Assembly (NCBI GenBank): GCA_030612025.1 | Contig: JAUWOR010000007.1 | Span: forward strand, 32,332-96,331 | DNA: 64,000 nt | Reading direction: 5' to 3' | Source of the DNA: Dehalococcoidia bacterium | GTDB lineage: Bacteria > Chloroflexota > Dehalococcoidia > GIF9 > AB-539-J10 | Part shown: one piece after another, positions 7,311 through 50,144 of the stretch | How the letters are laid out: every line of letters starts with the position of its first letter | How positions within the stretch are numbered: the stretch's first letter is position 1 | The notes under the pieces: model-generated | Databases searched by the model: none | Seen by the model: the letters and a program-made list of their open reading frames with translations, nothing else | What the model was told of the DNA's origin: nothing | Made by a program: the position numbers and the translations under genes

Positions 7311-7319
7311 AGATAGCCA

Positions 7320-20931: not shown

Positions 20932-21069
20932 CTAACGGAGTTTGTTAAACGTTCTGCTATTCCGAAAAGAAGCGCCAATCGAATTCTAGAGAAATTAAAT
21001 GAACAAAATACAATTAAACTTACGTGATTATCCCTTGACAACAAGTAATCCCTATATTATAATGGAAGC

Positions 21070-21918
21070 ATGAAGAAATACACAATAGTAGATTTCAACA
21101 AAGATTTCCCCGATGATGACGCTTGCCTACAATGGCTAAAGAACTATCTTTATCCTAATGGTATCTTCTGCAAACAATGTGGAATGGTCACAACACACCA
21201 CAAAGTAGGTAAACGGCCGTGCTATGCCTGTGCCCGATGTGGTAGTCATGTTTACCCGATGGTAGGGACTATCTTTGAGAAATCCGTTACACCGCTCAAG
21301 CTCTGGTTCTATGCTATCTTCCTTATAAGTTCTACTCGCTGCGGTATATCAGCCAAGCAACTTCAACGAGAGTTAGGAGTTACTTACAAAACAGCTTGGC
21401 GTATATTCCATGCAATTCGCTCCCTACTACGAGAGGACACCAAGCCTATGTCCGGAGAAGTTGAAATAGACGAAACTTACATCGGTGGGAAAGCTCATGG
21501 CAAGCGTGGCTGTGGTGCCGGGAATAAGACCCTTGTATTCGGCATGGCACAACGACAGGGCGACCTGAAGGCCTTTGCAACTAGCAACGTCAAACACTCA
21601 ACTATCTATCCTATTATGAAGCAGCATATCTTACCCCAAAGTATGATTTACACCGATGAATTTACGACGTACGATAACCTAAACCAACAAGGTTATCATC
21701 ACAAACAGGTGCATCATGCCTCAAAAGTCTACGTTTCTGGCAATGCACACACCAATACAGTCGAAGGCTTTTGGAGTGTATTAAAGTGTGGTATTGATGG
21801 CGTGTATCATGCCGTAAGTGAGAAGCACTTACAAGGTTATATCAACGAGTATAGTTTCAGGTATAATCACAGGCAAGATGATAAGCCTATGTTTAAGACG
21901 GGTTTGGAGAAGATTTAG
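21070..21918 (+). CDS. IS1595 family (ISXO2-like) DDE transposase
   Basis: Zn ribbon CxxC..CxxC, HTH ISAKQLQRELGVTYKTAW, EIDETY, YTDE, HTNTVEG, FRYN. Confidence 0.95.
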   Translation: MKKYTIVDFNKDFPDDDACLQWLKNYLYPNGIFCKQCGMVTTHHKVGKRPCYACARCGSHVYPMVGTIFEKSVTPLKLWFYAIFLISSTRCGISAKQLQRELGVTYKTAWRIFHAIRSLLREDTKPMSGEVEIDETYIGGKAHGKRGCGAGNKTLVFGMAQRQGDLKAFATSNVKHSTIYPIMKQHILPQSMIYTDEFTTYDNLNQQGYHHKQVHHASKVYVSGNAHTNTVEGFWSVLKCGIDGVYHAVSEKHLQGYINEYSFRYNHRQDDKPMFKTGLEKI

Positions 21919-22009
21919 GCTTTTCTATTCGGCGACAAGCCTTCTTTAGGGCGAAGCTAAAGCTCTTCTTTGTAGTAGAGATTTGCTTTATGTCTATCGG
22001 TTTTGTCAT
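21893..22009 (-). CDS. 38-aa antisense microprotein overlapping the transposase 3' end
   Basis: MTKPIDIKQISTTKKSFSFALKKACRRIEKPKSSPNPS; ATGA overlap with toxin stop; same-length homolog at 48534-48650. Confidence 0.6.
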   Translation of the reverse strand: MTKPIDIKQISTTKKSFSFALKKACRRIEKPKSSPNPS

Positions 22010-22383
22010 GGCTCTATAATACGCAACCTGTCATCGAGTCCTAGGCTTATTTGTAGAGCTTTATCGACTTCGTCCATTTTCTCTTTACTCAGTTCACCAC
22101 ACTTATCACCCAGTCGTGACTTTTCTATCGTCATTATTGTTGCCAAATTAATATTACAACCCTTCGGTAACCCACTCTCCTGAGCCGTTACAGGCACAAG
22201 GAAAGGAAATGGCTTCTCTGGGGCAGTACTACAACTAGCAACAATTGTTGTTGGGCTGACTTCATTTCCAATATCATTTTGAATTATTAAGGCTGGTCTT
22301 GTGCCTATTATTTCAGTACCCCTACCAGGACTCCAATCTACCCAATATAATTCCCCACGCCTACACTTAATCGCCATTGCCAC
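22006..22383 (-). CDS. mazF: PemK/MazF family toxin
   Basis: RGELYWVD..PGRG.E..G.RPALIIQND.GN, MDEVDKALQISLGL. Confidence 0.92.
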   Translation of the reverse strand: MAMAIKCRRGELYWVDWSPGRGTEIIGTRPALIIQNDIGNEVSPTTIVASCSTAPEKPFPFLVPVTAQESGLPKGCNINLATIMTIEKSRLGDKCGELSKEKMDEVDKALQISLGLDDRLRIIEP

Positions 22384-22384
22384 A

Positions 22385-22630
22385 TTATTTCCACTCAGGC
22401 AAGACCTCGTGTGCTATTTCCATAGCTTCTCTCGCAACTTGCAGGTTTCCCTCTGCCATGACTCTATAACCCTCTACCATCTCCTCACGTAAACGCTTAT
22501 CTGCAAACTCCTGCAAACACGTAGAAAACACTTTGCTACGACTTACATTCCACTCGTTTGCAATTTCATCGATCAATGCGATTAAGTCACGAGGCACACT
22601 AATAGTCAACTTCGCCACCTTCACAGTCAT
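22385..22630 (-). CDS. Ribbon-helix-helix antitoxin (MazE/NdoAI-like)
   Basis: KLTISVPRDL..LID......VSRS; EMVEGYRVMA. Confidence 0.88.
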   Translation of the reverse strand: MTVKVAKLTISVPRDLIALIDEIANEWNVSRSKVFSTCLQEFADKRLREEMVEGYRVMAEGNLQVAREAMEIAHEVLPEWK

Positions 22631-22807
22631 AACTTTCCTCCTTACATTATGTTATGATATATTTGGAGTAAAAATATAACTTAACAAAAATTATTTGTCA
22701 ACTTGCGTTGATGGGATAATCACGTAAAATTATTAAAGAGGGAAAGGGAACAAGACCGCCAGTTTTCATATTTTCAGAATTAATCGAAATCGTTGGGTAA
22801 AGAATTT

Positions 22808-23085
22808 GTGCGTGTCATAAATGGCGTGCAACCCCAATAGTGCGCCACAAAATAGAAATTATGGCGTGCAAGCAATTTAGTGGGACATAGATGGCTCGCA
22901 AATCGATTTTTTGTCCAATATCCCTAGAAAAATGACTTGTGGGCGATATTGTGCATCATAATCGGCAATTTTTGGCACACAAAAAGATTTGTGTGCCATT
23001 TTGGAATGCAAAGACGATTAGTGTGCCACAATTCTTGATTTATGGCACACAAGAAGGTTTGTGGGACATAAATGAGACACAAAAG
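22808..23085. repeat. Degenerate array of alternating TGTGCCA / TGGCACA-like motifs, 30/40-bp spacing
   Basis: About 8 forward and 8 reverse motifs; ~181-bp internal duplication. Confidence 0.7.
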
Positions 23086-23170
23086 GCAGTTTGAGACTGC
23101 AATGCAACGATATTCGGCAGAAATAAAGAGAGGGTAGTCAGGTCTGGCACTACCTCAGCTAAAGCGCTGC

Positions 23171-23445
23171 ACTCAGAAAATCGCCTGCTTGATGAAAACT
23201 ATAGTCAATCACAAAATTCCTTATAATCCTCCCTCCCCTAGCGGGAGGGAGTTAGAGGGAGGGGGAAATTCACCCTCACCTAACCTCTCTTGTAAGGAAG
23301 AAAAATTCATTACATGAGAGGTATTTTTTCACGATACTATGCGGAAGACTATAAGAATTTATGTAACATGCGCCCGGTTATATCACCAGGGCGAGTAACT
23401 TTGCTCCGACGGTCTCTTCCTCGTGAAGAGGCCGTTTTCTTTTTT
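23171..23445 (+). repeat. ~270-bp direct repeat, copy 2, ending in hairpin plus T-tract
   Basis: Near-identical to 20659-20931; cggtctcttc-ctcgt-gaagaggccg then ttttcttttt. Confidence 0.9.
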
Positions 23446-23551
23446 CTATGATTCTCAACGCATAAAGTATATCTTCAAATGGCGCTAAGGCATATTAGGC
23501 CGATGAAGTTTAAGGAGAGCCTAAAGATTTATCGAAGGCTCTGAGCTCTAC

Positions 23552-25003
23552 CTAAAACCTAGTTTTTCGCCGCACCTGAAACGTGAATGAAAGAAGTTTC
23601 TCGAGAAAGTCATTTACCGCCTTCGACTTGTCATTATAGGCTATCGTCTCTTTACCAATCATGAGGGTAGCATAAGCGAGTTTTGCCTCTTCTGACCCTG
23701 CCATTTCCCGCTTGTAGTCAGGGTTGACTTTATTAACTTGGACAACGCCGCTCAGGAAACGACTATGATGCGAAGGGCCATCCTCGAAAGGCACCTCCGC
23801 AAAAGCAATTCGCATACCACCCGGGCGTGAAGTGTCACCAGGCTTAGTTGACCGAGTTCCTGTCTCCCTTCCCTTGTGGGTTCCCGTATGTTGACTGATA
23901 GGTGCCTTTTGCCTTCGTAGTCCACCAAGAAGCTCTAAACCTTTGAAATCTCCTTGATTAAGGATTTCCCTCGCAAGCTCAATCGCCCTCCGTTGAATCT
24001 GTGTAAGCTTTTTCTCCTCCGCTTCCAGCCTTAATTCGTCTACCTCATCCTCAATCGAAGGGCGGAGCTTGTCAAGTTCTAACAAAAATTGGATCCAGTC
24101 CTGATTTTCTTCAAAACCAGTCCTTGCAGGAAGTGGCTTAAGAAAGTCAGCATCAATATAACCCTTGAGAAATCCGCTTGCATAAACGCTTTCCTCAAGA
24201 CCGTAGGCTTGAATCGCCTTCACATCATCAACTACAGGAATCCCAGTGTGCCGAATGGAAACTTTGCTTTTCCCGGAAGCATCAAACCAAAATTGACAAT
24301 TAAAAACCTTTTGCCAGTCGCTTGAAAAATGCACTTCTCTAAACGCTTCCCCAACACCGGGGAGACTTATTTCTAATGGTTCCACCTTATAAATCTTGCC
24401 AGCGCAAGTTATCGTGATTTTTAAATTCCCTTCCCTTAGGTAAGCATCAAACTTTTCAGCGAACACATGCTGTAGTCGTTCCGCTCCTAAGGGGCCACGC
24501 AACCTTGTAGGGTCATGCTGTAACCCAGCGATAACGATAGTCATCCCGGGTTCCTTGCGAGATTCTCTTTTAGTCGCTGTTTCTATCTCAGCATCGTCAG
24601 ACTGCTTTCTAAGAACAACCTTAATAGTGGGCATGCCTTTTGCTTTCTTGCTATAAAAAGTGCAACTTGTTCCAACCTGGTTGAAGGCAAAAATCCCAAT
24701 GCCTAATTCTCCAATTTGAGGTATAGTTAATCCCGGCTTTACTGAATCAGCAACTTTATCAAGTGCTGCCTCAAATTCCTTCTGGGCCATTCCCGGGGAA
24801 TTATAGTCAATAGTTATCTTTCCCTTCTCAAGAAGGTAACCTACCTCGCAGGGTCCTTCCATTTCTCCTTTATCTCTAGCCTTTCGCCATTCATCCACAG
24901 CATTGCTAATATATTCTTTGATAGCATCAGCAGGGTTACGATAAAGGCTTCCAATATAGGTGAGAAGGTTAGCCATGTTTCCTCGGATTTTCTTCTTTGC
25001 CAT
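23552..25003 (-). CDS. GHKL (Hsp90/MORC-like) ATPase
   Basis: LYRNPADAIKEYISNAVD, IGELGIG, GxIDADFL, coiled coil, VNKVNPDY. Confidence 0.8.
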   Translation of the reverse strand: MAKKKIRGNMANLLTYIGSLYRNPADAIKEYISNAVDEWRKARDKGEMEGPCEVGYLLEKGKITIDYNSPGMAQKEFEAALDKVADSVKPGLTIPQIGELGIGIFAFNQVGTSCTFYSKKAKGMPTIKVVLRKQSDDAEIETATKRESRKEPGMTIVIAGLQHDPTRLRGPLGAERLQHVFAEKFDAYLREGNLKITITCAGKIYKVEPLEISLPGVGEAFREVHFSSDWQKVFNCQFWFDASGKSKVSIRHTGIPVVDDVKAIQAYGLEESVYASGFLKGYIDADFLKPLPARTGFEENQDWIQFLLELDKLRPSIEDEVDELRLEAEEKKLTQIQRRAIELAREILNQGDFKGLELLGGLRRQKAPISQHTGTHKGRETGTRSTKPGDTSRPGGMRIAFAEVPFEDGPSHHSRFLSGVVQVNKVNPDYKREMAGSEEAKLAYATLMIGKETIAYNDKSKAVNDFLEKLLSFTFQVRRKTRF

Positions 25004-25009
25004 TTCTCT

Positions 25010-25462
25010 TTACCTCCCTTTGAAGGATTGAAATTGGATTGTGGTGAGGGCGAGCCACCTTATAAATTTATCCTCCTCACTCATCATAGCAAGGAGACTA
25101 GAAATATAGCCTATATCAGATGCATCAAGTTCTTTGCGAAATACCTCTCTTGCATCAGGGTTATTGTCTCGAAACCACCGTAGTTCGTCTTCAAGTAGAA
25201 GTAAAAGATATTTAATTTTTTCTGTTCTGTGCCTTGCCTCTTCAATCTGGCGATAAACCTCGGGCCTTTCTTTGCTTTCTAGGAAAGTTCTAATCTTAGT
25301 CAAATTAGCTTCAGAGGGTTTCCTGGCACCTTTACCATGTTGAAACCACTTCTTAATAGTGCTATAGGGAATCCCAAGCGTGTTAGCGAGCTCTTTTCTT
25401 GGAATACCAAGCCTCTTAGCATAAGTATCCAATCCCAAAAGCACTGTTTCTATTGTTTCCAT
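25010..25462 (-). CDS. Xre-type HTH protein with helical C-terminal domain
   Basis: RKELANTLGIPYSTIKKW...KPS; its 3' end holds the GGAGG RBS of the ATPase. Confidence 0.8.
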   Translation of the reverse strand: METIETVLLGLDTYAKRLGIPRKELANTLGIPYSTIKKWFQHGKGARKPSEANLTKIRTFLESKERPEVYRQIEEARHRTEKIKYLLLLLEDELRWFRDNNPDAREVFRKELDASDIGYISSLLAMMSEEDKFIRWLALTTIQFQSFKGR

Positions 25463-25518
25463 CGTTTATCCTTCGTAGTTCCTCATTCGCCCGCTCCAAA
25501 TCCGCTAGTTGGGCTATC

Positions 25519-25737
25519 TCATCCTTGCTTCTCAAGGCCCTTGGCTATCGCCTCATATTCAAAAGGAAATTTATTCCTGAACCATGCCCTATATACCCAT
25601 TTATGGCATTCACAAGCATTGATCTTGGCTATTCCATCAGATTTAAGTTCTGGATTACAAAATGGGCAAATCCTGTTATCTGTAATTTTCAGTTCGCTTC
25701 TATGTAATGCTTTTTTGATCCAACCAGCTTCTGACAT
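25519..25737 (-). CDS. Small Cys-containing hypothetical protein
   Basis: ORF track; CPFC..CECH. Confidence 0.4.
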   Translation of the reverse strand: MSEAGWIKKALHRSELKITDNRICPFCNPELKSDGIAKINACECHKWVYRAWFRNKFPFEYEAIAKGLEKQG

Positions 25738-25740
25738 TTT

Positions 25741-25936
25741 TAGCTTCCATCACAAGGTGCAGTTGTCCAAGTAATCGTAATTGTAACACTTGCAGAGGAA
25801 TTATTCGCTTCACTCAGATTGCTAGTTACTCATTATCAGGAATACTGGTATCAGTAGCAGAAGCACTGCTATCAGAGATACCTAAGCAAACTGCTATCAA
25901 CACCAGAGTAACTAAGACAATCAACTTTTCCATCAT
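25741..25936 (-). pseudogene. Small secreted-peptide gene, apparently disrupted
   Basis: MMEKLIVLVTLVLIAVCLGISDSSAS..* then NNSSASVTITITWTT; internally deleted second copy at ~27876-27920. Confidence 0.4.
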
Positions 25937-25969
25937 TCCTACTTAGTCTGGCTCCTGTTCACTCAATTT

Positions 25970-26332
25970 CTAGCTATCCTGCTGCCTAGTATTTAAGGTA
26001 TTGGCTTTAGCATTTTTGCCTGTGTGGGCTTTCTCTTTCCTGAGCTTCCGCCACGTTAGCGAACAATATACTACAAGGCTGAAGCCAAGTGCTATGAAAA
26101 AATATGCGTCGAACCATCGCCAATGAGGACTTGCTTGCATTGTAACGAGAATACTAATGCCCAGAAAGCAAATTGCACCCCCTACACCTAGACCACTCAT
26201 AATAGCGGTCTGCTTATGTTGTGTTTTAGCTTCCTCCCTCATAGATTGAATCTTATTTTGAATATCAGCTAATGTAACGTTATCATTATTTTGCTCCCCT
26301 GACATGTCTTTCTCCTTTGTCGTATCAATCAT
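25970..26332 (-). CDS. Hypothetical two-TM membrane protein
   Basis: Two hydrophobic segments; likely start MSGEQ after GGAG. Confidence 0.65.
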   Translation of the reverse strand: MIDTTKEKDMSGEQNNDNVTLADIQNKIQSMREEAKTQHKQTAIMSGLGVGGAICFLGISILVTMQASPHWRWFDAYFFIALGFSLVVYCSLTWRKLRKEKAHTGKNAKANTLNTRQQDS

Positions 26333-26529
26333 TTTAGCCGAATTATACCCTCAACAAACCTCAAATAGAAGAGCCGTTAAGTTTGGGGATAGATAGTTTG
26401 AGGCTTTACTGTGGGCTTAAGGTTTCACCTTCAAGGGATAGCCCATAATCCTAGAGTTTTCAACCATATCAGGAGGTCAAGATTAGTCTGAGGTCATTTC
26501 GTGGCATTTACCCTGTGCAGTAAGAAATG

Positions 26530-26979
26530 CTATGTTTCCCTATTCCTCTTTTTCGTCTCAACAGAGATGTCTACGGGTATATCAGAAACGCCTTCCCAGG
26601 CATTCTTTTCTTCATTCCAAATTTGGGTACGAAAGCTATACATCCCCGATTCACTAACCGGGAAGTTCGCCACATTCCTTTTTGTTCGTAATCGCTTATG
26701 TTTGGAAAGGTCGATAGGATATTCGTTCTCAACTACGACTTTCCCAGTAGGACTTAAGATGGTATCTTTACCACGACTATGGCCGGGGTACTCAATTGGT
26801 TCCCGTTGCCACGTGGTTACCCATGCGATCTTCACAGGAAACGGAATCATAGGCTCTTCTATGTTGCTTTCCGACGTCGTTATGCGCACTTCCTCAAGAA
26901 CGTCAAACAAACTTACGTTATTTGATTCTTTATCTATGACAGCACGTAAACATATGACTGTCCAAATATGCCGAATCAT
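26530..26979 (-). CDS. DUF6941-like all-beta protein, third gene of the TA operon
   Basis: W..IC..A.ID..SNNVSL..V, G.Y.F pattern; GGAGG RBS inside the antitoxin 3' end. Confidence 0.65.
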   Translation of the reverse strand: MIRHIWTVICLRAVIDKESNNVSLFDVLEEVRITTSESNIEEPMIPFPVKIAWVTTWQREPIEYPGHSRGKDTILSPTGKVVVENEYPIDLSKHKRLRTKRNVANFPVSESGMYSFRTQIWNEEKNAWEGVSDIPVDISVETKKRNRET

Positions 26980-26985
26980 TTATTA

Positions 26986-27408
26986 TCATGCCTCCACGGG
27001 AGTAAAATCCCGAACACTATTTTCTGAACTAGATACAACGACTTCGCTCTTTTCACCAGCCCATCTATAGTCCAGTATATCAGCCTCTTCTAATTTGCGA
27101 CTCTCTACACTAGGTTGGGGACTGGATATTAAGGGAACTGCCTTTGTTGAAAGACGTAGCCCTAGGATCGCTAAGATTTTCCCAATCCTTCCGATTGTAG
27201 GATTTGCGTCTCCTGCTTCTAGCTTGGCTATGTATGATTGGCTTGTCCCTAAAGAGCTTGCCAAGTCTGTCTGAGTACAACTGGCGATGCGACGTGCTCT
27301 AGCCAAAGTTAAAGCAAACTCACTTTTTGCGGCAGCAGCACCAAACTCTTGAGCGAATTCCAAATCTGCGAGTTCTCTCTCTAAATCTTCCTTGAATGTT
27401 CTGTTCAT
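26986..27408 (-). CDS. HigA-like Xre-HTH antitoxin with ~45-aa C-terminal extension
   Basis: TQTDLA..LGTSQSYIAKLEAGDANPTI. Confidence 0.88.
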   Translation of the reverse strand: MNRTFKEDLERELADLEFAQEFGAAAAKSEFALTLARARRIASCTQTDLASSLGTSQSYIAKLEAGDANPTIGRIGKILAILGLRLSTKAVPLISSPQPSVESRKLEEADILDYRWAGEKSEVVVSSSENSVRDFTPVEA

Positions 27409-27417
27409 AAGCCCTCC

Positions 27418-27756
27418 TTATTTGTTTGAGCGATATTCATTCAATAGGTCACGGGCTTCGTTAATCTGTCCAGCCTCGCGCCTCCTCTTTTTTAAGAAGC
27501 CATTCAACAAGACAAATTTATTGTCTTGTTTGTCGTAATACACAATAACCCTACATTGGCCCCCTACTAATTCATATAGGTGACCCTCCCCGATAACCGA
27601 CTTTAGCATGTTTGTACCAAGAAGCTCCAAACCATATTCTCCAAGCTTCTGTATCTTAGCCATAATGACAGCCCTTGACCTCTTCTCCAATTTATCAATC
27701 CAATCAACTATAGGTTTGTCACCATTAGGCCTTGTATAATAATCAACTTGGTACAC
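27418..27756 (-). CDS. RelE/HigB (Gp49-like) toxin
   Basis: YY...G..PI..WI, LYEL, R.IVY, LLNGFLKK; toxin-first order; upstream TTGACA-17-TATATT with an imperfect palindrome. Confidence 0.88.
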   Translation of the reverse strand: MYQVDYYTRPNGDKPIVDWIDKLEKRSRAVIMAKIQKLGEYGLELLGTNMLKSVIGEGHLYELVGGQCRVIVYYDKQDNKFVLLNGFLKKRRREAGQINEARDLLNEYRSNK

Positions 27757-28118
27757 GTCTAATATAACCCCTTAGGTGATATTTGTCAATACCAGCCTCC
27801 TTTCATGGCGGCCGTGGGTCCCACAGTCTTGGGACTCAATTAACTGAACTACTGCTCAGGCAAAGACAGAGTTCACCAAGTAATCGTAATTGTAGCACTT
27901 GCTGAGGAATCAGAGATACACTAGGTCGGTAAGGTTTGAGGATAAGTTAAGGCTTTGTCGTAGGCTTGAGGCTCTGTCTACAGATGGCGAAAAAGACTAA
28001 ATCAGATCTGAAGGGTGTTGGAGCATGGAGGAGTAACTTTTGAGAACGGATTTGGCTCTTGGTGGCAAACACAACAGTACGCTATATTGCGCAATTGAAA
28101 AGGATTAACAAACCCAAG

Positions 28119-29207: not shown

Positions 29208-29375
29208 AATTATTATCTTAGGTCAATTACTGTACTGAATTGGTATTATCTGATACATCTACACTGGTATTCACCTCATCATCGGCAATACTTGATAAGA
29301 GGAAGCCTGCTAACATTATTAAGCAACCAAATTAAGCGACCAAAACAATCAGGCTTTTCATTATCTCCGTCTACG

Positions 29376-30224: not shown

Positions 30225-30372
30225 ACGTCTCCCTCTTTACAATCAACCAGTCACACTGGCATAACGCCAATCGGCCTTTTCACCGCCACCGCCTCTTAAA
30301 TCAATTATACCCTCAACCAACCAAATAGAAAACCTGAACAAGCTCGACATTTGTTTAACCCAGAGGAATGCC

Positions 30373-30440
30373 AAACTGCTGCTCTGCCCCTGAGCTACGC
30401 TGGCAACGAAATTGGTATAGCTGATGGCAACGATTTTGAC
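30373..30440 (-). pseudogene. Displaced 5' half of tRNA-Thr with decayed promoter (att-like scar)
   Basis: GCCAGCGTAGCTCAGGGGCAGAGCAGCAGTTT matches 30 of the first 32 nt of the tRNA; shared upstream catcagctatac. Confidence 0.85.
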
Positions 30441-30484
30441 TAGCACCCTTGTGCATATGCTGAGGAGTGAGGAGAGAATATAGC

Positions 30485-31492: not shown

Positions 31493-31562
31493 TCCTATAC
31501 TTTGGTTTTATCCCTCATTGAGGATTAGCTGCCTCCCAACCCTACTATTAGCAATTCCTACC

Positions 31563-38527: not shown

Positions 38528-38548
38528 AGATTAAGTCCCAAGCTTCGA

Positions 38549-40701: not shown

Positions 40702-40713
40702 AATGCACTCTTA

Positions 40714-40811
40714 TGTCATCTTGAGCCCTTCACTTCCTGTCATTCTGAGGAAGCGAAGCGACCGAAGAATCTCGCTCAGGGTAAACTCCGCGAAGGGTCT
40801 AAGGAATGACA
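40714..40811. repeat. REP-like TGTCATTCTGAG...GAAGAATCT element
   Basis: Family members at 41913-41940, 46099-46249, 53361-53448. Confidence 0.75.
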
Positions 40812-40837
40812 AGGAGGCGAACTGGAGGTAAATATAA

Positions 40838-41926: not shown

Positions 41927-41957
41927 AGCGAAGAATCTCGGGATTGAAGCTCAGAAG

Positions 41958-42944: not shown

Positions 42945-45178
42945 GGAGCCACATTTAATAACTGCTTTAATCCATTCCGCCATGCCTTTCCTATCTTAGC
43001 CAAAGGCAAATCGATATAACCTTTCACTGATAGGCGCTTACCGCCGACCATCCCCAGCAAAGTTAACGGCACATGCCACTTGGTAGCTATCCTATCTAAC
43101 TTTGCCACCGAACCAGGCGCTACCGATATCACAACACGCGATTGAAGCTCACCAAAGAAAACAGAATCCAGCCTTCCCATTACCTTCCAGCTTGTCCCCC
43201 TAAAGCCAATATCACCAGCAAGGCAACTTTCCGCAATAGCTACCGCCGCTCCACCCTCAGAGCAATCATGAGCTGACTTGACAACCCCATGCTCTACGGC
43301 TTCCAGACAACAACGCTGCACCCTCATTTCCAAATCTAAATCAATAGAAGGTTTCCCCTTCACCAAGCCATGCACCAGTTCCAGATATTCACTGCCCCCA
43401 AGACCATCTTCTACACCACCACCAAGCAGAAATACCAAATCACCCTCGTCTTTAAAAGACATAGTGCAATGTCTATTTATGTCGCTGAGCAACCCCACCA
43501 TACCCACTATCGGGGTAGGATAGATAGCTTGACCTTTAGTCTCGTTGTAAAGACTAACATTACCGCTAATAACTGGAATTCCTAGTTCTCGACATGCCCT
43601 CGCCATGCCCTTGATACAATTTTTCAGTTGATAATAGACATCACCCTTTTCTGGATCACCAAAATTAAGGCAATCGGTGATAGCTAAAGGTTCAGCACCA
43701 CTGCAAACTAAATTTCGAGCCGCCTCAGCTACAGCAATCACACCACCCAAGTAAGGGTCAAGATAGCAATACCGTCCATTACCATCGGTAGTCAAGGAAA
43801 TACCTTTCTTAGTGCCCTTGATGCGCAAAACAGCGGCATCGCTGCCGGGAGGAACCACAGTATTACCCATTGCTTGATGGTCATATTGGCGATAAACACA
43901 CTCCTTGCTGGCAATATTAGGCGAAGCCAGTAAACGAAGCAGGGTGGAATTGCATTGCTTCGGCTTAAGATCAGGGACAGTGCTCATGTCCAAAGATTGA
44001 AATCCAGCAAGCCAACTTGGCTTTTTGCTTCGCAGCCGATACAAAGGTGGAGATACCAACAAATTCACCGGGACTTTAGCGACGATCTCCTCTCCTTCTC
44101 TAATTACAACCAAATTGTTATCGGTAACCTGACCAATGATATTAGAGCGTAGTCCCCAGCGGTCGAACAAGACTTTTACCTTACCTTCACAACCCTTTCT
44201 GCTTATTAGCAACATTCTCTCTTGTGATTCTGAGAGCATTACTTCATAAGAGGTCATGTTCTCCTCGCGACGAGGCACTTTAAGCACATCTAATTCCACT
44301 CCGCCTCCACCTCTAGCCGCAGACTCTGCCGTAGCAGCAGCCAACCCAGCAGCCCCCAAGTCCTGCATGCCTACAATCCAATCAGTCTGCGCTAATTCAA
44401 GGCACGCTTCAATGAGCAGTTTCTCCAGAGAGGGATTGCCTACCGGAACCACTGACTTCGTCTCTGGCTCACCCTCAAAAGCACGCGATGCTAGACCGGA
44501 AGCACCATGAATCCCGTCACGACCAGTGTCAGCTCCTACTAGCATCAACAAGTTACCTTCACCACTAGCCTTGGCTTTGACTAGTCTATCTTTCTCACAA
44601 ATGCCCAAACATAAGCCATTAACTAACGGATTGCCAGTATACCCATCAGCAAAAAATACTTCACCGCCTACACTAGGTATTCCTAGACAATTACCATAGT
44701 CGGCAAGGCCACCGACAACTCCATTAAATAAGTAGCGATTACTGGATTCGGTTAAAGGACCAAAACGAAGCGAGTTAAGCAAAGCTATAGGGCGAGCGCC
44801 CATAGTAAAGATATCGCGTACAACTCCACCTATCGCTGTAGCTGCACCTTGATATGGGTCAATTGCAGAGGGGTGATTGTGGGACTCTATTTTCATTACC
44901 ACCACCTGCCCATCACCAATATCCACCGCCCCAGCATTTTCCTCACCTGGACCGATTAAGACATGCTTGCCCCGCGAAGGCAAAAGCTTAAGCAAAGGTT
45001 TAGAATGTTTATAACCACAATGCTCGCTCCATAAAGAGCCGAACATGCCCAACTCTACCTCATTTGGCTCTCGCCCCAATTGCTGCACAATAAGGTTATA
45101 TTCCTTTTCGCTTAAAGCAACTTTATCCAGAGCTTCTTTAGAGATAGTCAATAATCGACTCCCAAATGAGATTGCCAT
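42941..45178 (-). CDS. purL: Phosphoribosylformylglycinamidine synthase subunit PurL
   Basis: WSEHC, ESHNHPS, QDLGAAGL, SESQERM, SGNVSLYN. Confidence 0.97.
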   Translation of the reverse strand: MAISFGSRLLTISKEALDKVALSEKEYNLIVQQLGREPNEVELGMFGSLWSEHCGYKHSKPLLKLLPSRGKHVLIGPGEENAGAVDIGDGQVVVMKIESHNHPSAIDPYQGAATAIGGVVRDIFTMGARPIALLNSLRFGPLTESSNRYLFNGVVGGLADYGNCLGIPSVGGEVFFADGYTGNPLVNGLCLGICEKDRLVKAKASGEGNLLMLVGADTGRDGIHGASGLASRAFEGEPETKSVVPVGNPSLEKLLIEACLELAQTDWIVGMQDLGAAGLAAATAESAARGGGGVELDVLKVPRREENMTSYEVMLSESQERMLLISRKGCEGKVKVLFDRWGLRSNIIGQVTDNNLVVIREGEEIVAKVPVNLLVSPPLYRLRSKKPSWLAGFQSLDMSTVPDLKPKQCNSTLLRLLASPNIASKECVYRQYDHQAMGNTVVPPGSDAAVLRIKGTKKGISLTTDGNGRYCYLDPYLGGVIAVAEAARNLVCSGAEPLAITDCLNFGDPEKGDVYYQLKNCIKGMARACRELGIPVISGNVSLYNETKGQAIYPTPIVGMVGLLSDINRHCTMSFKDEGDLVFLLGGGVEDGLGGSEYLELVHGLVKGKPSIDLDLEMRVQRCCLEAVEHGVVKSAHDCSEGGAAVAIAESCLAGDIGFRGTSWKVMGRLDSVFFGELQSRVVISVAPGSVAKLDRIATKWHVPLTLLGMVGGKRLSVKGYIDLPLAKIGKAWRNGLKQLLNVAP

Positions 45179-45313
45179 CTATATTGCCAAGAAGCGGCTC
45201 GCAAGCTCGCTCAGGATAGGGCATCACGCCTAAAACATTGCCCTCTTTACTACAAATAAAAACAATGACGGCATTATTTTACCGCCACGCACCATTTAAT
45301 TGCTAGAGCCTTT

Positions 45314-45340
45314 ACCCCGTGGAATAAATGTTCCACGGGG
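45314..45340. repeat. Palindromic hairpin accccgtggaa..ttccacgggg
   Basis: Perfect 10-bp stem; same accccgtg end as the 34-bp hairpins at 7588 and 7701; could act as a terminator. Confidence 0.55.
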
Positions 45341-45364
45341 GGACCCCTAAATATTGCTATAAAT

Positions 45365-45814
45365 TCAGAGGTTAGCAAGCAACTCTGAAACTACATCGCT
45401 AACTTCTTTACCACCAGCTTTACCCTTAAGCTTTGGCATAAGCTGAGACATAACTTTACCCTTGTCACTTATCCCTTTAGCTCCAATTGCGCCAATTGCT
45501 TGCTGTGCCACAGTTACAACCTCCTCACGACTCATCTGCTTGGGAAGATATCCCATAAGGATGGACAATTCTGCTTCTTCCTGAGCTACAAGATCGCTGC
45601 GATTCCCTCGCTTGAAAGCTTCAATGCTCTCCCGATGTCGCTTTACTTCCTTACCAATAACATCAAGAATTTCATTATCATCAAGGGGGGTCCGTTGAGC
45701 AATTTCAGCCTTCTTTATTTCGGATAAAAGCAACCTCACTATAGAAACCCGGACTCCATCATGTTGCTTTAGCGCTTCTTTGAGGTCTTCCCTTATCTTT
45801 TTCTCGCACTTCAC
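45365..45814 (-). CDS. GatB/YqeY domain protein
   Basis: DLKEALK, R.ESIEAF..G.R.DL, YLPKQMS, GKVM. Confidence 0.92.
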   Translation of the reverse strand: MKCEKKIREDLKEALKQHDGVRVSIVRLLLSEIKKAEIAQRTPLDDNEILDVIGKEVKRHRESIEAFKRGNRSDLVAQEEAELSILMGYLPKQMSREEVVTVAQQAIGAIGAKGISDKGKVMSQLMPKLKGKAGGKEVSDVVSELLANL

Positions 45815-45819
45815 CTTGG

Positions 45820-45996
45820 CTACTTAGAACTTTTTTGCCTCTTTATCGCTTCTTTTTTCTTGCGCTCTTCGCTGGGTTTCTCATAAAACCTGCGACGGCG
45901 AAACTCAGCTAAAATATTGTCGTGCTGCACTTGCCTGTTAAACCTGCGCAGCAAACTTTCAAAACTCTCACCTGAACCAAGTCTTACATCAGCCAT
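45820..45996 (-). CDS. rpsU: 30S ribosomal protein S21
   Basis: MADVRLGSGESFESLLRRF...RRRRFYEKPSEERKKK; absent from ORF track. Confidence 0.95.
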   Translation of the reverse strand: MADVRLGSGESFESLLRRFNRQVQHDNILAEFRRRRFYEKPSEERKKKEAIKRQKSSK

Positions 45997-46098
45997 ATTA
46001 CAGCATATCTGTCTTCATACAAAACACTATATTTTATCCATCACAGCCTAACTATGTCAAGCATTCTTAGGCGAGATTGTTTTAGTAACCTCGTTTTT

Positions 46099-46249
46099 TG
46101 TCATTCTGAGCCCTATGGGCGAGGAATCTCTTAATAGACTCTTCGCGGAGCTTGTCCTGAGAAAGATTCTTCGGTCGCTGACCCTTTCGCTATACTCAGG
46201 GCTTCGGCTCTTCCCCAGAATGACAAGAGGCGAAGGACTCAGAATGACA
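46099..46249. repeat. REP-like GTCATTCTGAG composite inverted element
   Basis: tgtcattctgag ... ctcagaatgaca. Confidence 0.75.
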
Positions 46250-46383
46250 ATTTGCTGTTAATAAACACTCTCTTTAAGCGATATAACGATTTGCGAGGAG
46301 GGAGGCAGCAATGACAAGCAAGAGTGATGATATAATGATATCAGTTATAATGGATTTTGAATCAACCTGAAATGAGCTAACTA

Positions 46384-47679
46384 ATGAACCTTGCTTCACA
46401 AATTGAACACTATCTACCTCAACAACTCCTAGAGTTGGCTAGAAATATTAGCTTGGAGGCTGAGCGACTGGGGCAAAAGATATATCTTGTTGGCGGTGTG
46501 GTACGAGACTTGCTTCTAGGTTATCCTAATTTCGACCTAGATTTGGTAATCGAAGGTGATGCCGTAAAGTTAGCACGGCGGATAGCTAAAATTAGTGACA
46601 CAAAGTTGATTATACATCCTCGCTTTGGCACTGCTAAGCTTAGCTACAGCAATTTCACTTTAGACATGGCTACTGCGCGAGGTGAAACTTATGCCAGGCC
46701 AGGCGCATTACCAACAGTTACCCCAGGTTCCCTCAACGGCGATCTCTTTCGCCGGGATTTCTCCATCAATGCCATGGCTATATCCCTCAACCAAAACAAT
46801 TACGGAGAATTGATCGACCCCTATCAGGGTAAAAACGATCTAGAGCACCATCTTATCCGCATTCTGCACCCAAGGAGTTTCAGCGACGATGCCACTAGAA
46901 TTTTACGAGCTATCCGCTACGAGCAACGACTGGAATTTGAGCTCGAACCACAAACTGCACAGCTGCTTAAACGGGATATTCCTATGCTAAATGCCATAAG
47001 CGGTGACCGCATAAGACATGAACTGGAGCTAATACTCAGGGAGAGATATCCCGAATATGCCATTAAACGACTTGGCGAGCTAGGAGTGCTGCAGAGGATA
47101 AATCCGTCTCTCAACTATGATGGCTGGATTGCCAAGAAATTTGATAAAGCACGGTCACTTAATAAACCTAGCCAACTCCCCTCACTTTATCTATGTCTTC
47201 TTGTTTACCCTCTTGATGAAAGGGGAAATGAGCAGTTCATCCACCGTCTTAATATACCCAAAAAATTAGCCTGCGCATTGCGTGATACACTTCGCTTAAA
47301 GAGTCAACTTCACCTCCTAGACAAATCTTCCCTGAAATATAGTGAAATTTATTACTTACTTCATGAGTATGACCTATTAGCTATCCAGACCAACGCCATA
47401 GCCTCAGAATCTTCAGTTGTGTGTTCCAATCTCGAGCTGTTTTTAACTAAATTGAGGTACGTAAAGACCTCCCTCAACGGAGAGGAGCTAAAAAGGCTAG
47501 GTATTTCCGCCGGGCCAGAGTTAGGGAAAATCCTCCAAATACTACATAAGGCGAAATTGGATGGAGAGGTCAAGAATAAGGCAGAAGAAGAAAAACTAGC
47601 ACTATTACGGAAACCACAAGGGCAAGAGACGGAAGATTCTCTGACCAAAGTAACAAAACAAAACGTGATTATCCCTTGA
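46384..47679 (+). CDS. CCA tRNA nucleotidyltransferase / poly(A) polymerase family
   Basis: VGGVVRD, DLD, RRDFSINAMA, DDATRILRA; stop lies inside the IS left end. Confidence 0.93.
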   Translation: MNLASQIEHYLPQQLLELARNISLEAERLGQKIYLVGGVVRDLLLGYPNFDLDLVIEGDAVKLARRIAKISDTKLIIHPRFGTAKLSYSNFTLDMATARGETYARPGALPTVTPGSLNGDLFRRDFSINAMAISLNQNNYGELIDPYQGKNDLEHHLIRILHPRSFSDDATRILRAIRYEQRLEFELEPQTAQLLKRDIPMLNAISGDRIRHELELILRERYPEYAIKRLGELGVLQRINPSLNYDGWIAKKFDKARSLNKPSQLPSLYLCLLVYPLDERGNEQFIHRLNIPKKLACALRDTLRLKSQLHLLDKSSLKYSEIYYLLHEYDLLAIQTNAIASESSVVCSNLELFLTKLRYVKTSLNGEELKRLGISAGPELGKILQILHKAKLDGEVKNKAEEEKLALLRKPQGQETEDSLTKVTKQNVIIP

Positions 47680-47710
47680 CAACAAGTAAGCCCTATGCTA
47701 TAATAGAAAC

Positions 47711-48559
47711 ATGAAGAAATATACAATAGTAGATTTTAACATAGATTTCCCAGATGATGATGCTTGCTTAGAATGGTTAAAGAACTATCTTTATCCAAGT
47801 GGTATCTTCTGCAAGCAATGTGGAATGACCACAACACATCATAAAGTAGGCAAACGGCTGTGCTATGCTTGCAGTCGGTGCGGTAGCCATGTTTACCCAA
47901 TGGTAGGAACTATCTTTGAGAAATCCGTTACACCGCTCAAGCTCTGGTTCTATGCTATCTTCCTGATAAGCTCCACTCGCTGCGGTATATCAGCTAAGCA
48001 ACTTCAACGAGAGTTAGGAGTTACTTACAAAACAGCTTGGCGTATGTTCCATTCAATCCGCTCATTATTACAAGAAGAGATTAAACCTATGTCCGGCGAA
48101 GTTGAAATGGATGAAACCTATATCGGCGGGAAAGGACGTGGCAAGCGTGGGCGTGGTGCTGAGAACAAAACGCCGGTATTCGGTATGGTTCAACGTAAGG
48201 GTACAGTTAAAGCTTTGAAAACTAGAGACTTAAAGAGTGCTACAGTCTATCCGCTTGTTAGGGCTCATATTCTCCCGCAGAGTATGATTTACACAGATGA
48301 ATTTACTACATACGACAGCTTGAAGAAACAAGGTTATCATCATAAACGAGTGCAGCACGCCTCAAAAGTCTATGTCTCTGGCAATGCACATACCAACACA
48401 ATTGAAGGCTTTTGGAGCGTATTAAAACGTAGTATTGATGGCGTTTACCACGCCGTAAGTGAGAAGCATCTACAAAGTTATATCAACGAGTATAGCTTTA
48501 GATACAATCATCGTGGAGATGAGAAGCCTATGTTTAAGACGATTTTGGAGAAGGTTTAG
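47711..48559 (+). CDS. IS1595 family DDE transposase
   Basis: Same motifs as 21070-21918; ~84% aa identity by manual count. Confidence 0.95.
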   Translation: MKKYTIVDFNIDFPDDDACLEWLKNYLYPSGIFCKQCGMTTTHHKVGKRLCYACSRCGSHVYPMVGTIFEKSVTPLKLWFYAIFLISSTRCGISAKQLQRELGVTYKTAWRMFHSIRSLLQEEIKPMSGEVEMDETYIGGKGRGKRGRGAENKTPVFGMVQRKGTVKALKTRDLKSATVYPLVRAHILPQSMIYTDEFTTYDSLKKQGYHHKRVQHASKVYVSGNAHTNTIEGFWSVLKRSIDGVYHAVSEKHLQSYINEYSFRYNHRGDEKPMFKTILEKV

Positions 48560-48650
48560 GCTTCTTAATAGGCCGACAAGCCTTCTTTAAGGCAATCTCA
48601 AAATCCTGCCTTGGTAGAGATAGTTTCTTGACATCTATTTGTTTAACCAT
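48534..48650 (-). CDS. 38-aa antisense microprotein overlapping the transposase 3' end
   Basis: MVKQIDVKKLSLPRQDFEIALKKACRPIKKPKPSPKSS; 21/38 identical to copy 1. Confidence 0.6.
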   Translation of the reverse strand: MVKQIDVKKLSLPRQDFEIALKKACRPIKKPKPSPKSS

Positions 48651-48733
48651 TGCGGATTATCCAACTCTAGATTCAAGCACATCTCTTAGTATTGTTATCA
48701 GTAAGCCCATAGAAACAGTGACTTGGATTATAT

Positions 48734-48976
48734 TCACTCAGTATATACCTTGACCCCAAGGCCCTTCAGTATATTCTTTACAATTTCAATCGCTGGCAGG
48801 TCATTTAATTTGACTCCTTCACTTACTGCAAGTAGGTCTACCCCCACAGGTTTCCCAGGGTTTATAGAATAATCAACGAGACGATTATCATCAAGTTCCT
48901 TAGTATATCCAATAGGTTCACTATTCAACTGAATATAGACAGCATCTGCTACTGGGTCGCTTTCTACGTGTAACAT
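48734..48976 (-). CDS. DUF2283 domain protein (putative antitoxin)
   Basis: D..ADAVYI.L, T.ELD....VDY...GKPVGVDLL; GGAGG RBS. Confidence 0.85.
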   Translation of the reverse strand: MLHVESDPVADAVYIQLNSEPIGYTKELDDNRLVDYSINPGKPVGVDLLAVSEGVKLNDLPAIEIVKNILKGLGVKVYTE

Positions 48977-48996
48977 ATTATCCTCCTAATCCTATA

Positions 48997-49230
48997 TTAC
49001 ATATAAGTAAATACGTCCACCACAATAATAGGCTTAGCACAAACATTCCTCACCCTAACCTTCATATTCCGACCATCTGGGAGTTTGCATACCCAAACTG
49101 TATCTCCTCCAACCTTGTATGTCCTGGTTTGGTGAAACTTGCAAAACCAAACATGTGCTTCACTAAGGACACGAGCAGACATACGAGATAATGCATAACT
49201 CGTAAACTCCACAGATTTATCTTGTGCCAC
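48997..49230 (-). CDS. DUF4258-like putative toxin (usual His appears as Tyr)
   Basis: FTSYALSRM..R versus usual FxxHAxxRMxxR; IIVVDVF; upstream of DUF2283. Confidence 0.6.
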   Translation of the reverse strand: MAQDKSVEFTSYALSRMSARVLSEAHVWFCKFHQTRTYKVGGDTVWVCKLPDGRNMKVRVRNVCAKPIIVVDVFTYM

Positions 49231-49425
49231 AACGCTCGCAGATTATCTCCCATACCGATACTATCGGTATGCCTTAAATACTAGTGATATTGTTACTCTA
49301 TGAAACAATATATACATTGTGTTGCATTTGTCAAGTTTTTGTCCATGTTTTTCCATATTTTGTCGGTTACTACGCTTGACACCCCCCATTATAGTAGTAT
49401 AATCCCAATTAGAGGAGGTGATATT

Positions 49426-49737
49426 ATGGCGGATAAATGTACGTGGATGGGTGCATCTGGCAAGGAATACTTATACGACATCTATCCAATAAATACTGAT
49501 TGGAATGATGTGTCAGGAAACTATATCTTTGCGAAGGAGCCCTCACCCCATAAGTGGCAAGCCGTATACATAGGTGAAACGGAAAGCTTCAAGGACCGAC
49601 TACCCACCCATAATGAATTACCATGTATTAAGCGTAATGGGGGTACGCATGTACACACCCATACTAACAGCAATAGTCGTGCCAGATTAGACGAAGAGAA
49701 AGATTTGCTTGCCAACAATACGACCCCGTGTAACTAA
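49426..49737 (+). CDS. Stand-alone GIY-YIG nuclease-like protein
   Basis: GNYIF...VYIGET....RL..H...E..L.....P.N; own TTGACA/TATAAT promoter and GGAGG RBS. Confidence 0.8.
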   Translation: MADKCTWMGASGKEYLYDIYPINTDWNDVSGNYIFAKEPSPHKWQAVYIGETESFKDRLPTHNELPCIKRNGGTHVHTHTNSNSRARLDEEKDLLANNTTPCN

Positions 49738-49979
49738 TAATCTAGTAGACCTTTTTTGACCAGTTTCCCTATTTGTCGTGCGGCTTGTTTAGGGATATGC
49801 TTAACAGGCTGCCATTGCCCTGTTTCCGTAGGGGATAGCACCACAAAGCAATGGTCATCTATGGTAATACCACATTTGCAGTTATGTCCAACATCGACTA
49901 ACCATTCTGGTTGCCAATTAGGTTTAACATCTACTATGTCCTCTTGCGCTTGTATAACCATAATACCTCCATTTATCAT
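49734..49979 (-). CDS. Small hypothetical protein (CxC..HC)
   Basis: ORF track; GGAGG before MVIQAQ. Confidence 0.55.
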   Translation of the reverse strand: MINGGIMVIQAQEDIVDVKPNWQPEWLVDVGHNCKCGITIDDHCFVVLSPTETGQWQPVKHIPKQAARQIGKLVKKGLLDY

Positions 49980-50144
49980 TTACTTGTCTCTATGGTATAA
50001 TCACGAAACAAAATATACTTAGGGAATCTTCCCCCCAGCAAGGTAATAAGAACCTCCACAACGGTATTTTTGACGCTCCGGCGATTAATCCTGCGATGTC
50101 AAACGATAAAACAGGTTGAAGAGAATTGTAACTGAATTAGCTAC

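Follow-up and report, generated by a model that had tools for sequence, protein, structure and literature searches.

Two insertion sequences (IS), here called E1 and E2, lie in a 64,000-nucleotide stretch of contig JAUWOR010000007.1 from a Dehalococcoidia bacterium; we refer to the whole stretch as the window. We consider it very probable that they are distinct, and probably still functional, transporter IS (tIS) of the IS1595 family, of the ISNwi1 type. The genome comprises 1,400,681 bp on 19 contigs and is an estimated 95.6% complete, and it has two IS1595-type transposase genes, both inside the window. E1 spans positions 21023-22724 (1702 bp) and E2 spans positions 47664-50005 (2342 bp). 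The left inverted repeat (IRL) of E1 (21023-21046, plus strand) begins CGTGATTATCCC, and its 24 nt are identical to those of the E2 IRL (47664-47687, plus strand). The right inverted repeats (IRR; 22701-22724 in E1 and 49982-50005 in E2, both minus strand) are inverted copies of the left ends, matching at 19/24 and 18/24 positions, respectively. E1 is flanked by TAAACTTA on the left (21015-21022) and TAAAATTA on the right (22725-22732), which agree at seven of eight positions, and E2 is flanked on both sides by a perfect AAACAAAA (47656-47663 and 50006-50013). End searches and flank comparison reproduced the coordinates, terminal inverted repeats and 8-bp duplications given in a preliminary description of the window. 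A fuzzy 24-mer search of the whole 1.40 Mb, allowing up to six mismatches, returned these four ends and one unrelated match, and no proximal right end near the stop codon of the transposase gene (tnp). E1 and E2 are homologous at 84% DNA identity over element positions 1-930 and then only over the terminal ~14 nt, so that their cargo differs completely, as had been described.

The transposase genes of E1 (21070-21918, plus strand) and E2 (47711-48559, plus strand) each encode 282 aa. Both proteins combine an N-terminal zinc ribbon (PF12760; 28.3 and 27.2 bits, cut-off 25.4) with an ISXO2/IS1595-type DDE domain (PF12762, DDE_Tnp_IS1595; 146.6 and 153.6 bits, cut-off 27; E-values 7.7e-43 and 5.4e-45), and both match NCBIfam model NF033547 (208 bits for E1 and 227 bits for E2, cut-off 75). 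This domain pair, the terminal inverted repeats and the 8-bp target duplications place the elements in the IS1595 family. All 12 transposases that we aligned have D134, D196, E232, K239, E260 and R264, to which catalytic roles are assigned by position. These residues fit what we take to be the ISNwi1 signature, DDEK followed by E-x3-R, and the first letters of E1 and E2, CGTGATTAT, fit what is presumably the ISNwi1 end motif, ggnnatTAT. The likeness to tIS of the ISNwi1 type therefore covers the zinc ribbon with DDE_Tnp_IS1595, the 8-bp repeats, the ends (GGnnATTAT or CGTGATTAT), the DDEK and E-x3-R residues, passenger genes inside the inverted repeats and a size of 1.6-4.9 kb.

As previously described, the two transposases are about 84% identical (236/282 residues), and about half of the differences (21/46) fall in residues 142-186. 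The ratio of nonsynonymous to synonymous substitution rates (dN/dS) is 0.20 in this segment and 0.07-0.08 elsewhere in the protein. We rejected positive selection on residues 142-186 (dN/dS 0.14-0.20), and the cluster of differences is best read as merely a less constrained segment. Over the whole gene, dN/dS is 0.09-0.11 among E1, E2 and the related element L039, at a synonymous divergence (dS) of 0.8-1.1, which indicates that the transposases are under purifying selection. The earlier designation of E1 and E2 as sister elements is misleading, since their tnp dS is ~0.8 while the host flanks in congeners are 98% identical. This divergence marks them as old relatives and two distinct IS species, not recent sisters, and the usual IS-naming thresholds would presumably also make them different IS.

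E1 and E2 were each inserted as one unit, cargo included, because precise empty sites keep one 8-mer and no cargo. The query for E2 covered window positions 46384-50996. The E2 flanks abut in three congeners (G004, G003 and G001) and in a family member (G018), where the junction consists of a single AAACAAAA or a one-base variant, with neither IS nor cargo. In Logan contigs of two metagenome runs, X5 and X9, position 47655 is joined directly to 50006, so that 2350 nt are skipped, with an ambiguity of exactly 8 letters at the joint. Depth in X5 is ~130 in the flanks and 4-16 inside E2; the empty joint in X9 has a depth of 15, with 255 nt on its shorter side. An empty site for E1 with one 8-mer is present in G002, where the single 8-mer matches the right copy of the duplication at seven of eight positions. 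The single 8-mers that the preliminary description had proposed to look for were thus found for both elements, and relatives that lack the IS also lack the cargo genes at the same loci. E2 is absent from congeners with 98% identical flanks, and its insertion is therefore recent.

A tIS carries passenger genes unrelated to transposition inside its ends and moves together with them, which is what the empty sites and the unrelated cargo of E1 and E2 display. The tIS was reportedly defined for the IS1595 family by Siguier, Gagnevin & Chandler in 2009, in Res Microbiol 160:232. In the literature, the concept is restricted to the IS1595 and IS66 families, and transcription regulators have been named as passenger genes of one IS1595 member, ISNha5. 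The IS1595 elements with passenger genes that had been recognized in the window are confirmed as such by Pfam, NF033547 and the empty sites. The fixed cargo slot that had been proposed for them also holds, in that cargo takes the same position across elements, but it is not new, as it corresponds to the published tIS definition. What is new is the bias of the cargo toward conflict systems and a conserved convergent ORF of 38 aa (orfS), neither of which we found described for tIS. In contrast to the regulators of ISNha5, the annotated cargo found here consists mostly of toxin-antitoxin (TA), restriction-modification (R-M), nuclease and candidate defence genes. A literature search that covered neither subscription journals nor ISfinder turned up no report of IS1595 tIS with TA or defence payloads, with an obligatory cargo slot or with a conserved small ORF.

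We surveyed the cargo slot in the genome of the window and 40 related genomes, 13 of which (of 41 in all) had a transposase match; 14 copies were fetched. Clear ends with an 8-bp duplication (9 bp in one) were found in 10 of the 14, and one more was resolved later as L053. Two copies have candidate ends without matching duplications (L045 and L047), and L046 is cut by the start of its contig. A wider scan of one genome per species returned 606 transposase relatives, of which the best 78 loci were surveyed for cargo ORFs of at least 55 aa. These loci are labelled Chloroflexota, Acidobacteriota, Actinomycetota, Proteobacteria, Saccharibacteria, Nitrospirota, Verrucomicrobiota and others, about eight phyla. 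Exact 8-bp duplications flanking inverted ends (at least 13/20 matching) were present at 44 of the 78 loci, against a chance expectation of ~0.006 matches per locus. A relaxed end search added 11 loci with the family end motif, bringing the delimited loci to 55 of 78. GC-rich chance end pairs without the family motif, including L057, L074, L088 and L121 (218-295 bp of apparent cargo), were dropped. The related elements begin GGTAATTAT, GGTAAGTAT, GGCAATTAT and similar.

The delimited elements are 1.6-4.9 kb long, and 683-3960 bp separate the tnp stop from the right end in every one of them. No cargo-less member was found among the at least 65 delimited elements, some of which may be composites; L059 (positions 119-4904, 4786 bp) has a second IS1595 transposase gene inside and probably represents two nested or adjacent elements. 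Cargo is unrelated among E1, E2, L039 and L138 and takes the same position between the tnp module and the right end. The search of related genomes for further copies thus recovered very different cargo, in agreement with the diversity that had been anticipated. The 115 cargo ORFs in 44 elements lie on the minus (73) or plus (42) strand, and 26 of them have a Pfam family (E-value ≤1e-4). The annotated cargo includes DUF4258, DUF433 with MerR, PIN, NYN, PIN_10 with a helix-turn-helix (HTH) protein, SocA/Panacea, ribbon-helix-helix (RHH), HicA with a NERD-helicase, CdiA_C, a methylase-HNH fusion, a complete MvaI/BcnI-type R-M pair, an R-M remnant with Vsr, DUF3800 and KilA-N. As judged from these domains, most of it would be TA, R-M, nuclease or candidate defence genes. 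Matches to PADLOC-DB 2.0 (E-value ≤1e-5) were obtained for 10 of 93 scanned proteins, all from related elements: a PglX-like protein (L049), PDC-S45 (L055 and L066), PDC-S22 (L130), NERD-helicase models (L116) and R-M components.

Individual elements illustrate this range of payloads. Cargo in the sister genomes includes HicB with DUF6941 and a split PIN gene with a 949-aa methylase. L117 (positions 4920-7426, 2.5 kb) holds a complete type II R-M pair, consisting of an N6/N4 methylase and an MvaI/BcnI-type endonuclease, and L130 (positions 4899-7746, 2.8 kb) holds a KilA-N protein that matches the candidate defence system PDC-S22 (E-value 4e-109). Seven copies (L042-L045 and L050-L052) each carry a single protein of 227-441 aa, usually encoded on the strand opposite tnp. 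These proteins are mutually unrelated, have hydrophobic segments near the N-terminus and match neither Pfam nor PADLOC.

The E1 cargo is a putative type II TA pair of the MazEF kind, as the preliminary description had recognized. A MazF/PemK-like toxin of 125 aa (22006-22383, minus strand; PF02452, E-value 2.6e-27) lies behind an RHH antitoxin-like protein of 81 aa (22385-22630, minus strand; PF01402, RHH_1, E-value 1.7e-4, 21.9 bits, cut-off 20.5). A gap of 1 nt separates the two genes, which share a strand and follow a promoter-like site, and they would form one operon in which a PemK/MazF-fold toxin follows a small DNA-binding antitoxin. Two further MazF paralogs occur in the genome, both of them distant. 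In G003, E1 is found at the same locus with a deletion that took the left end, the promoter and approximately the first 65 codons of tnp. MazF and RHH are intact in this copy, with 98.4% and 97.5% amino acid identity and 99.5% and 99.2% nucleotide identity to E1, respectively, and the tnp remnant (L032, G003:C17) is more diverged than either. At 6 of the 11 genuine amino acid differences from E1 (148, 203, 205, 206, 213 and 231), the remnant has the E2 residue, a hint that gene conversion has taken place between the lineages of E1 and E2. These 11 exclude the first 12 apparent differences, which lie beyond the deletion breakpoint and are an artefact of the alignment.

Two divergent promoter-like sites (49307-49334, minus strand; 49376-49403, plus strand) part the E2 cargo into two modules. 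The first comprises a 77-aa putative toxin (48997-49230, minus strand) and an 80-aa DUF2283 protein, its putative antitoxin or partner (48734-48976, minus strand). The latter matches PF10049 with 26.9 bits (cut-off 23) and has 273 relatives at E-values up to 0.001, compared with only six homologs for the 77-aa protein. In a language-model search, DUF4258 clusters were top for the 77-aa protein (score 0.90, 192 shared features), and its ten best family-bearing matches all agree on DUF4258. Its AlphaFold model (predicted local distance difference test, pLDDT, 88.5) is predicted to have the RelE/ParE-superfamily (BECR) fold, with two N-terminal helices packed on an antiparallel sheet. The best structural match is the BrnT ribonuclease toxin (Z 8.5, root-mean-square deviation 2.5 Å, 73 of 77 residues aligned); 67 chains reach a Z of at least 5, with RelE, ParE, YoeB, HigB, YafQ or MqsR making up nearly all of the 50 highest-scoring ones. 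The names DUF4258-like and DUF2283 used earlier therefore stand, the former by language-model features and fold and not by a Pfam match to DUF4258, the latter by PF10049. Neither protein could be aligned by BLASTP to the cargo of L060, which includes a bona fide DUF4258 protein.

The two proteins are predicted to form a complex, with a score of 0.84 versus 0.06 for the best of three controls. In a benchmark, 116 of 157 solved complexes and 2 of 215 mismatched pairs scored this high; these counts apply only roughly here, as our prediction used our own alignments. The runs agree in 100% of contacts, the pLDDT of the partners is at least 92, and the predicted interface covers residues that are invariant in the family of the 77-aa protein (Y12, R16, R20, D72, F74 and T75). 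We know of no solved DUF4258-DUF2283 complex. Besides the fold nearest BrnT and the features nearest DUF4258, this predicted complex with its neighbour likens the 77-aa protein to the RelE/ParE (BECR) superfamily, while its failure to match the Pfam and NCBIfam models sets it apart from DUF4258 systems. The gene order also differs: here the toxin precedes DUF2283, whereas in a table of PMC11980606 the antitoxin of DUF4258 systems comes ahead of the toxin. An antitoxin role is not established for DUF2283; PMC4755241 describes DUF2283 proteins as transcriptional activators or antiactivators in the regulation of integrative and conjugative elements.

The second E2 module comprises a 103-aa GIY-YIG-fold protein (49426-49737, plus strand) and a convergent small ORF, p81, listed with 81 aa (49734-49979, minus strand), whose true start is probably M7 (ATG at 49961, 75 aa). 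At least 147 homologs of the 103-aa protein were found, with identities of 50-82%. An alignment of 33 of these shows that the pattern GNYIF...YIG...R58...H62...E90 is invariant, as are Y33, Y48 and E91. In a comparison of its model (pLDDT 94.3) with 48,161 representative chains, the six top chains are all GIY-YIG nucleases: the UvrC N-domain (Z 9.8), a plant Grx N-domain (9.1), T4 EndoII (8.0), I-TevI (6.7), R.Eco29kI (6.4) and PD-T4-3 (5.4). The seventh chain has a Z of 3.7. A profile search of the PDB returned UvrC only (E-value 0.68). The model thus predicts a GIY-YIG fold with the conserved Tyr, Tyr, Arg, His and Glu, to which we assign the roles that we take these residues to have in I-TevI and UvrC. 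The GIY-YIG label of the preliminary description is therefore upheld by fold and catalytic motifs, although the Pfam match is sub-threshold.

The small convergent ORF had been called Cys-rich, which overstates its three Cys and two His in one cluster. It has only three homologs and an uninformative Atlas match (score 0.77), and nothing was above threshold in Pfam, NCBIfam or PADLOC. A p81 homolog adjoins the GIY homolog in 19 of 80 metagenome loci, and we read the two as a nuclease-partner pair. In fold and in the GIY...YIG...R...H...E pattern the larger protein resembles the GIY-YIG superfamily, from which it differs in having 103 aa only, no DNA-binding extension and a small convergent partner of no known family. 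This partner suggests a nuclease-inhibitor pair, not a homing or repair enzyme.

Both elements also share orfS, a 38-aa ORF convergent with tnp (E1, 21893-22009; E2, 48534-48650; both minus strand). In both elements, orfS shares the stretch of its last ~8 codons with the end of tnp. For the 30 codons that lie beyond tnp, the proportions of nonsynonymous (pN) and synonymous (pS) differences between E1 and E2 are 0.26 and 0.71, and the other two frames of the region hold stops. A profile built from 17 of these ORFs matches 47 of 91 searchable loci, including 30 matches outside the training set; all are on the strand convergent with tnp and none are on the control strand. The tail of the predicted protein is basic and rich in Lys, Pro and Ser. 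No Pfam family was found (best E-value 0.054, in 1 of 17 members), and there was no meaningful PDB match. As a component of IS1595 biology, orfS would be new.

A consensus scan located promoter-like sites for tnp and for cargo. The tnp sites of E1 (21035-21063, plus strand; TTGACA-17-TATAAT) and E2 (47676-47704, plus strand) match the consensus at 12/12 positions, with the -35 hexamer within the IRL in each case. A cargo site of E1 (22673-22701, minus strand; TTGACA-17-TATATT, 11/12) lies just inside the IRR and faces inward. In E2, the site for the operon of the toxin-like protein and DUF2283 (49307-49334) scores 11/12, and the divergent site for the GIY-YIG-like gene (49376-49403) scores 12/12. 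TTGAC is present inside the left end in 37 of 44 delimited relatives and, facing inward, in the right end in 17 of 44.

The GIY-YIG gene also sheds light on where cargo comes from. It is rare in the host order, with 6 of 151 genomes having it. In one of the six, at L138, a 2542-bp element with the duplication TAAAATTA and a transposase 70% identical to those of E1 and E2, it occupies the same place and orientation beside the right end as in E2, and the other cargo is different. An IS1595 transposase match accompanies the GIY gene at 6 of 80 metagenome loci, or ~8 of 80 when family ends are counted. Two of the loci, L155 (~4540-4565) and L157 (~4770-4800), have a family-type right end after the GIY-p81 module and no transposase within 4 kb upstream, and are probably transposase-less remnants. 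At L157, a DUF2283 gene also lies between GroEL and the module. At the remaining loci, the module is found amid housekeeping genes or beside AbiTii-like, UvrD, Gp49/HTH or BsaWI genes. Since it is mostly outside IS elements, the GIY module was captured from a free-standing pool. One 6369-nt contig of run X9 contains an E2-like element that is inserted elsewhere, is flanked on either side by TAAACTTA and has ~94.5% nucleotide identity to E2 over tnp. At a threshold of 90% identity, its matches to E2 are confined to tnp, 48581-48650 (orfS), 49375-49415 (promoter) and the right end. A stretch of 724 letters is replaced by 870 others, and a further 802 letters follow the tnp stop. The 8-mer TAAA[A/C]TTA occurs at four independent insertions (E1, L049, L138 and this contig), which suggests a preferred target beyond mere AT-richness; the target duplications are 75% A+T overall.

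We propose that the transposase would bind both ends and move the whole segment as one unit, with the -35 hexamer of tnp within the left end allowing autoregulation. The core functions, tnp and orfS, would fill the first ~990 bp, and the DNA from orfS to the right end would be carried passively. Each cargo module would be self-contained, bring a consensus promoter of its own and stem from a pool of accessory modules that exist independently of the IS. The payload of E1 would be the RHH-MazF pair, and those of E2 would be the BECR-fold toxin-like protein with DUF2283 and the putative GIY-YIG nuclease with its small convergent partner. Such payloads are most probably selfish or conflict modules for which the IS serves as a vehicle and which in turn penalise loss of the insertion, and they would persist once the transposase decays, as in G003. 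An addiction or anti-phage function of the cargo, as proposed in the preliminary description, is a plausible candidate role.

Other explanations account for parts of these data. The simplest is that the cargo genes are ordinary chromosomal neighbours of a ~1-kb IS that landed alongside them, the distal right repeat being a chance match. The imperfect right ends (19/24 and 18/24) and the single mismatch in the E1 duplication would fit, but the empty sites in relatives and in two metagenome runs lack both the tnp module and the cargo and keep one 8-mer. Together with the missing proximal right end near the tnp stop and the same architecture in at least 65 independent elements, this leaves practically no room for chance neighbours, and the empty sites by themselves already refute the idea. 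A different possibility is that the TA modules are integral to transposition and couple transposase activity or retention to toxin control, a case made for Tn3 in PMC7157771. Cargo operons are mostly convergent with tnp, by the strand counts given above, and end at orfS, which overlaps the tnp stop, so that antisense transcription into tnp could follow. Against this, most elements have no recognisable TA genes, cargo is wholly different between elements with similar transposases, and the G003 copy keeps its TA pair without a working transposase; we regard such a coupling as quite improbable.

The cargo could also be mainly anti-phage defence that benefits the host, spread by the IS and kept by host selection and not by addiction. 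MazF and RelE-type TA systems act in abortive infection. For HigB, this is treated in PMC11980606. The complete type II R-M systems in L117 and L122, the PglX-like methylase in L049, the PDC-S22 and PDC-S45 matches and the NERD-helicase of L116, which is related to DRT-associated, Nhi and AbiO models, all point in this direction. So do the structural match of the GIY-YIG fold to PD-T4-3, by its PDB title a 5-hydroxymethylcytosine-specific restriction endonuclease, and the AbiTii-like, UvrD, Gp49/HTH and BsaWI neighbours of GIY-p81 modules elsewhere. Conversely, none of the six cargo proteins of the window has a defence match, 83 of the 93 proteins scanned have none, and the G003 TA pair has no synonymous change, so the age of any selection cannot be judged from it. 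Host-beneficial defence therefore seems a somewhat unlikely main role. The diversity of cargo may have arisen not by repeated de novo capture of flanking DNA but through modular recombination of related elements at short linkers (orfS, the promoter region and the right end). Outside tnp, the X9 element matches E2 at just these linkers, E2 and L138 have nothing in their slots in common except the GIY gene beside the right end, and the E2-type residues of the G003 remnant hint at gene conversion. On the other hand, the unmatched stretches of the X9 element may be homologous below the 90% threshold, linkers of 40-70 nt are short for homologous recombination, and most GIY modules are not linked to an IS, so that at least some de novo capture is needed. 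We hold recombination as the chief source of diversity to be somewhat unlikely.

Several points weigh against reading E1 and E2 as functional tIS with conflict-system cargo. All functional roles are putative, being assigned from sequence and predicted structure, and the ISNwi1 subgroup features used for comparison (end motif, signature and size range) are presumably those of ISfinder. E1 and E2 are each single-copy in the genome, and because of this, recent activity is inferred only from site polymorphism. The bias toward conflict systems reflects an annotated minority, as 89 of the 115 cargo ORFs have no Pfam family, and the six cargo proteins of the window gave no PADLOC-DB 2.0 match at E-values up to 1e-5. 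The 77-aa protein has no match to PF14076 at E-values up to 1, belongs to no Pfam or NCBIfam family and has a weak Foldseek E-value (0.07). The 103-aa protein falls below the PF01541 cut-off (14.6 versus 22.6 bits, E-value 0.042), also with a weak Foldseek E-value (6.6e-3). The ORF orfS belongs to no known family, and any role given to it would be conjecture. Finally, the cargo of the X9 element reflects either payload replacement at conserved linkers or divergence of more than 10%.

A bolder extension of the tIS reading is that the ISNwi1-like clade is an obligate cargo carrier. In that case tnp, orfS and the promoter-bearing ends would form a minimal, phylum-spanning shuttle and expression cassette for conflict modules; cargo transcription through orfS into antisense tnp would couple the payload to transposase control, and the linkers would permit payload swaps among nearly identical elements. 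We think this unlikely, and if it were true, these elements would be the smallest known vehicles seeding defence and TA genes into streamlined genomes.

Larger transposons with comparable cargo are known. TA transposons of the Tn3 family likewise have TA pairs inside the transposon, and these are proposed in PMC7157771 to be a functional part of the element and not random cargo. Tn3 transposons are larger and replicative and have a resolvase, with the TA genes beside the res site, whereas E1 and its relatives have a ~1-kb core with a single transposase and TA as one of many alternative payloads. Tn7-like transposons with defence cargo (PMC8649781) resemble the present elements in their defined cargo region and very diverse defence and conflict genes. 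They differ in that they rely on a machinery of several proteins, insert at specific attachment sites and carry tens of kb, compared with 0.7-4 kb of cargo and AT-rich 8-mer targets here. The G003 remnant, L155 and L157 resemble mobile insertion cassettes and IS derivatives without a transposase, exemplified by MIC231 (PMC3129680), in being cargo left with one end. No second end was found at these three loci, however, and they look like decay products, not mobilisable cassettes.

Empty sites, both in relatives and in other metagenomes, verify the elements of the window as clean examples of tIS. They come from the 1.4-Mb genome of an uncultured Chloroflexota-like bacterium, and their value lies in documenting a known kind of element and not in any conceptual novelty. 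Capture from free-standing accessory modules accounts for at least one payload, namely the GIY-YIG gene and its partner. The G003 copy of E1 indicates that a TA payload can outlive its transposase, which would be one route to orphan chromosomal TA pairs. If the cargo bias holds family-wide, the ~90 unannotated cargo ORFs, which include many single proteins of 230-440 aa with N-terminal membrane helices, would be a compact hunting ground for new conflict systems.

The surroundings of both elements have features of their own. A dispersed repeat of ~150 nt with a hairpin-like core lies at window positions 19713-19869; it has 75 BLAST matches in the genome, 40 of which span 100 nt or more, is also found many times in related genomes, and looks like a miniature inverted-repeat transposable element or a repetitive extragenic palindrome. 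Direct repeats of 228 nt (20659-20886 and 23171-23398, 95% identical) bracket E1 at a distance. These belong to a second dispersed family outside the IS, with a G/C-rich palindrome and 23 BLAST matches in the genome. We rejected a composite transposon formed by E1 and the 228-nt repeats, as the repeats are dispersed and the empty site in G002 lies between them. Approximately 460 bp from E1, a gene at 20246-20560 (minus strand) encodes an MNT-like Polbeta/NTP_transf_2 nucleotidyltransferase of 104 aa, which may be one member of a HEPN-MNT pair. E2 is inserted near the 3' end of a gene of the CCA-adding/poly(A)-polymerase family (46384-47679, plus strand). Its reading frame now stops 16 nt inside E2, and the empty-site sequences show that the native frame runs past the insertion point. 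The Pfam domains of its product end at residue 401 of 431.

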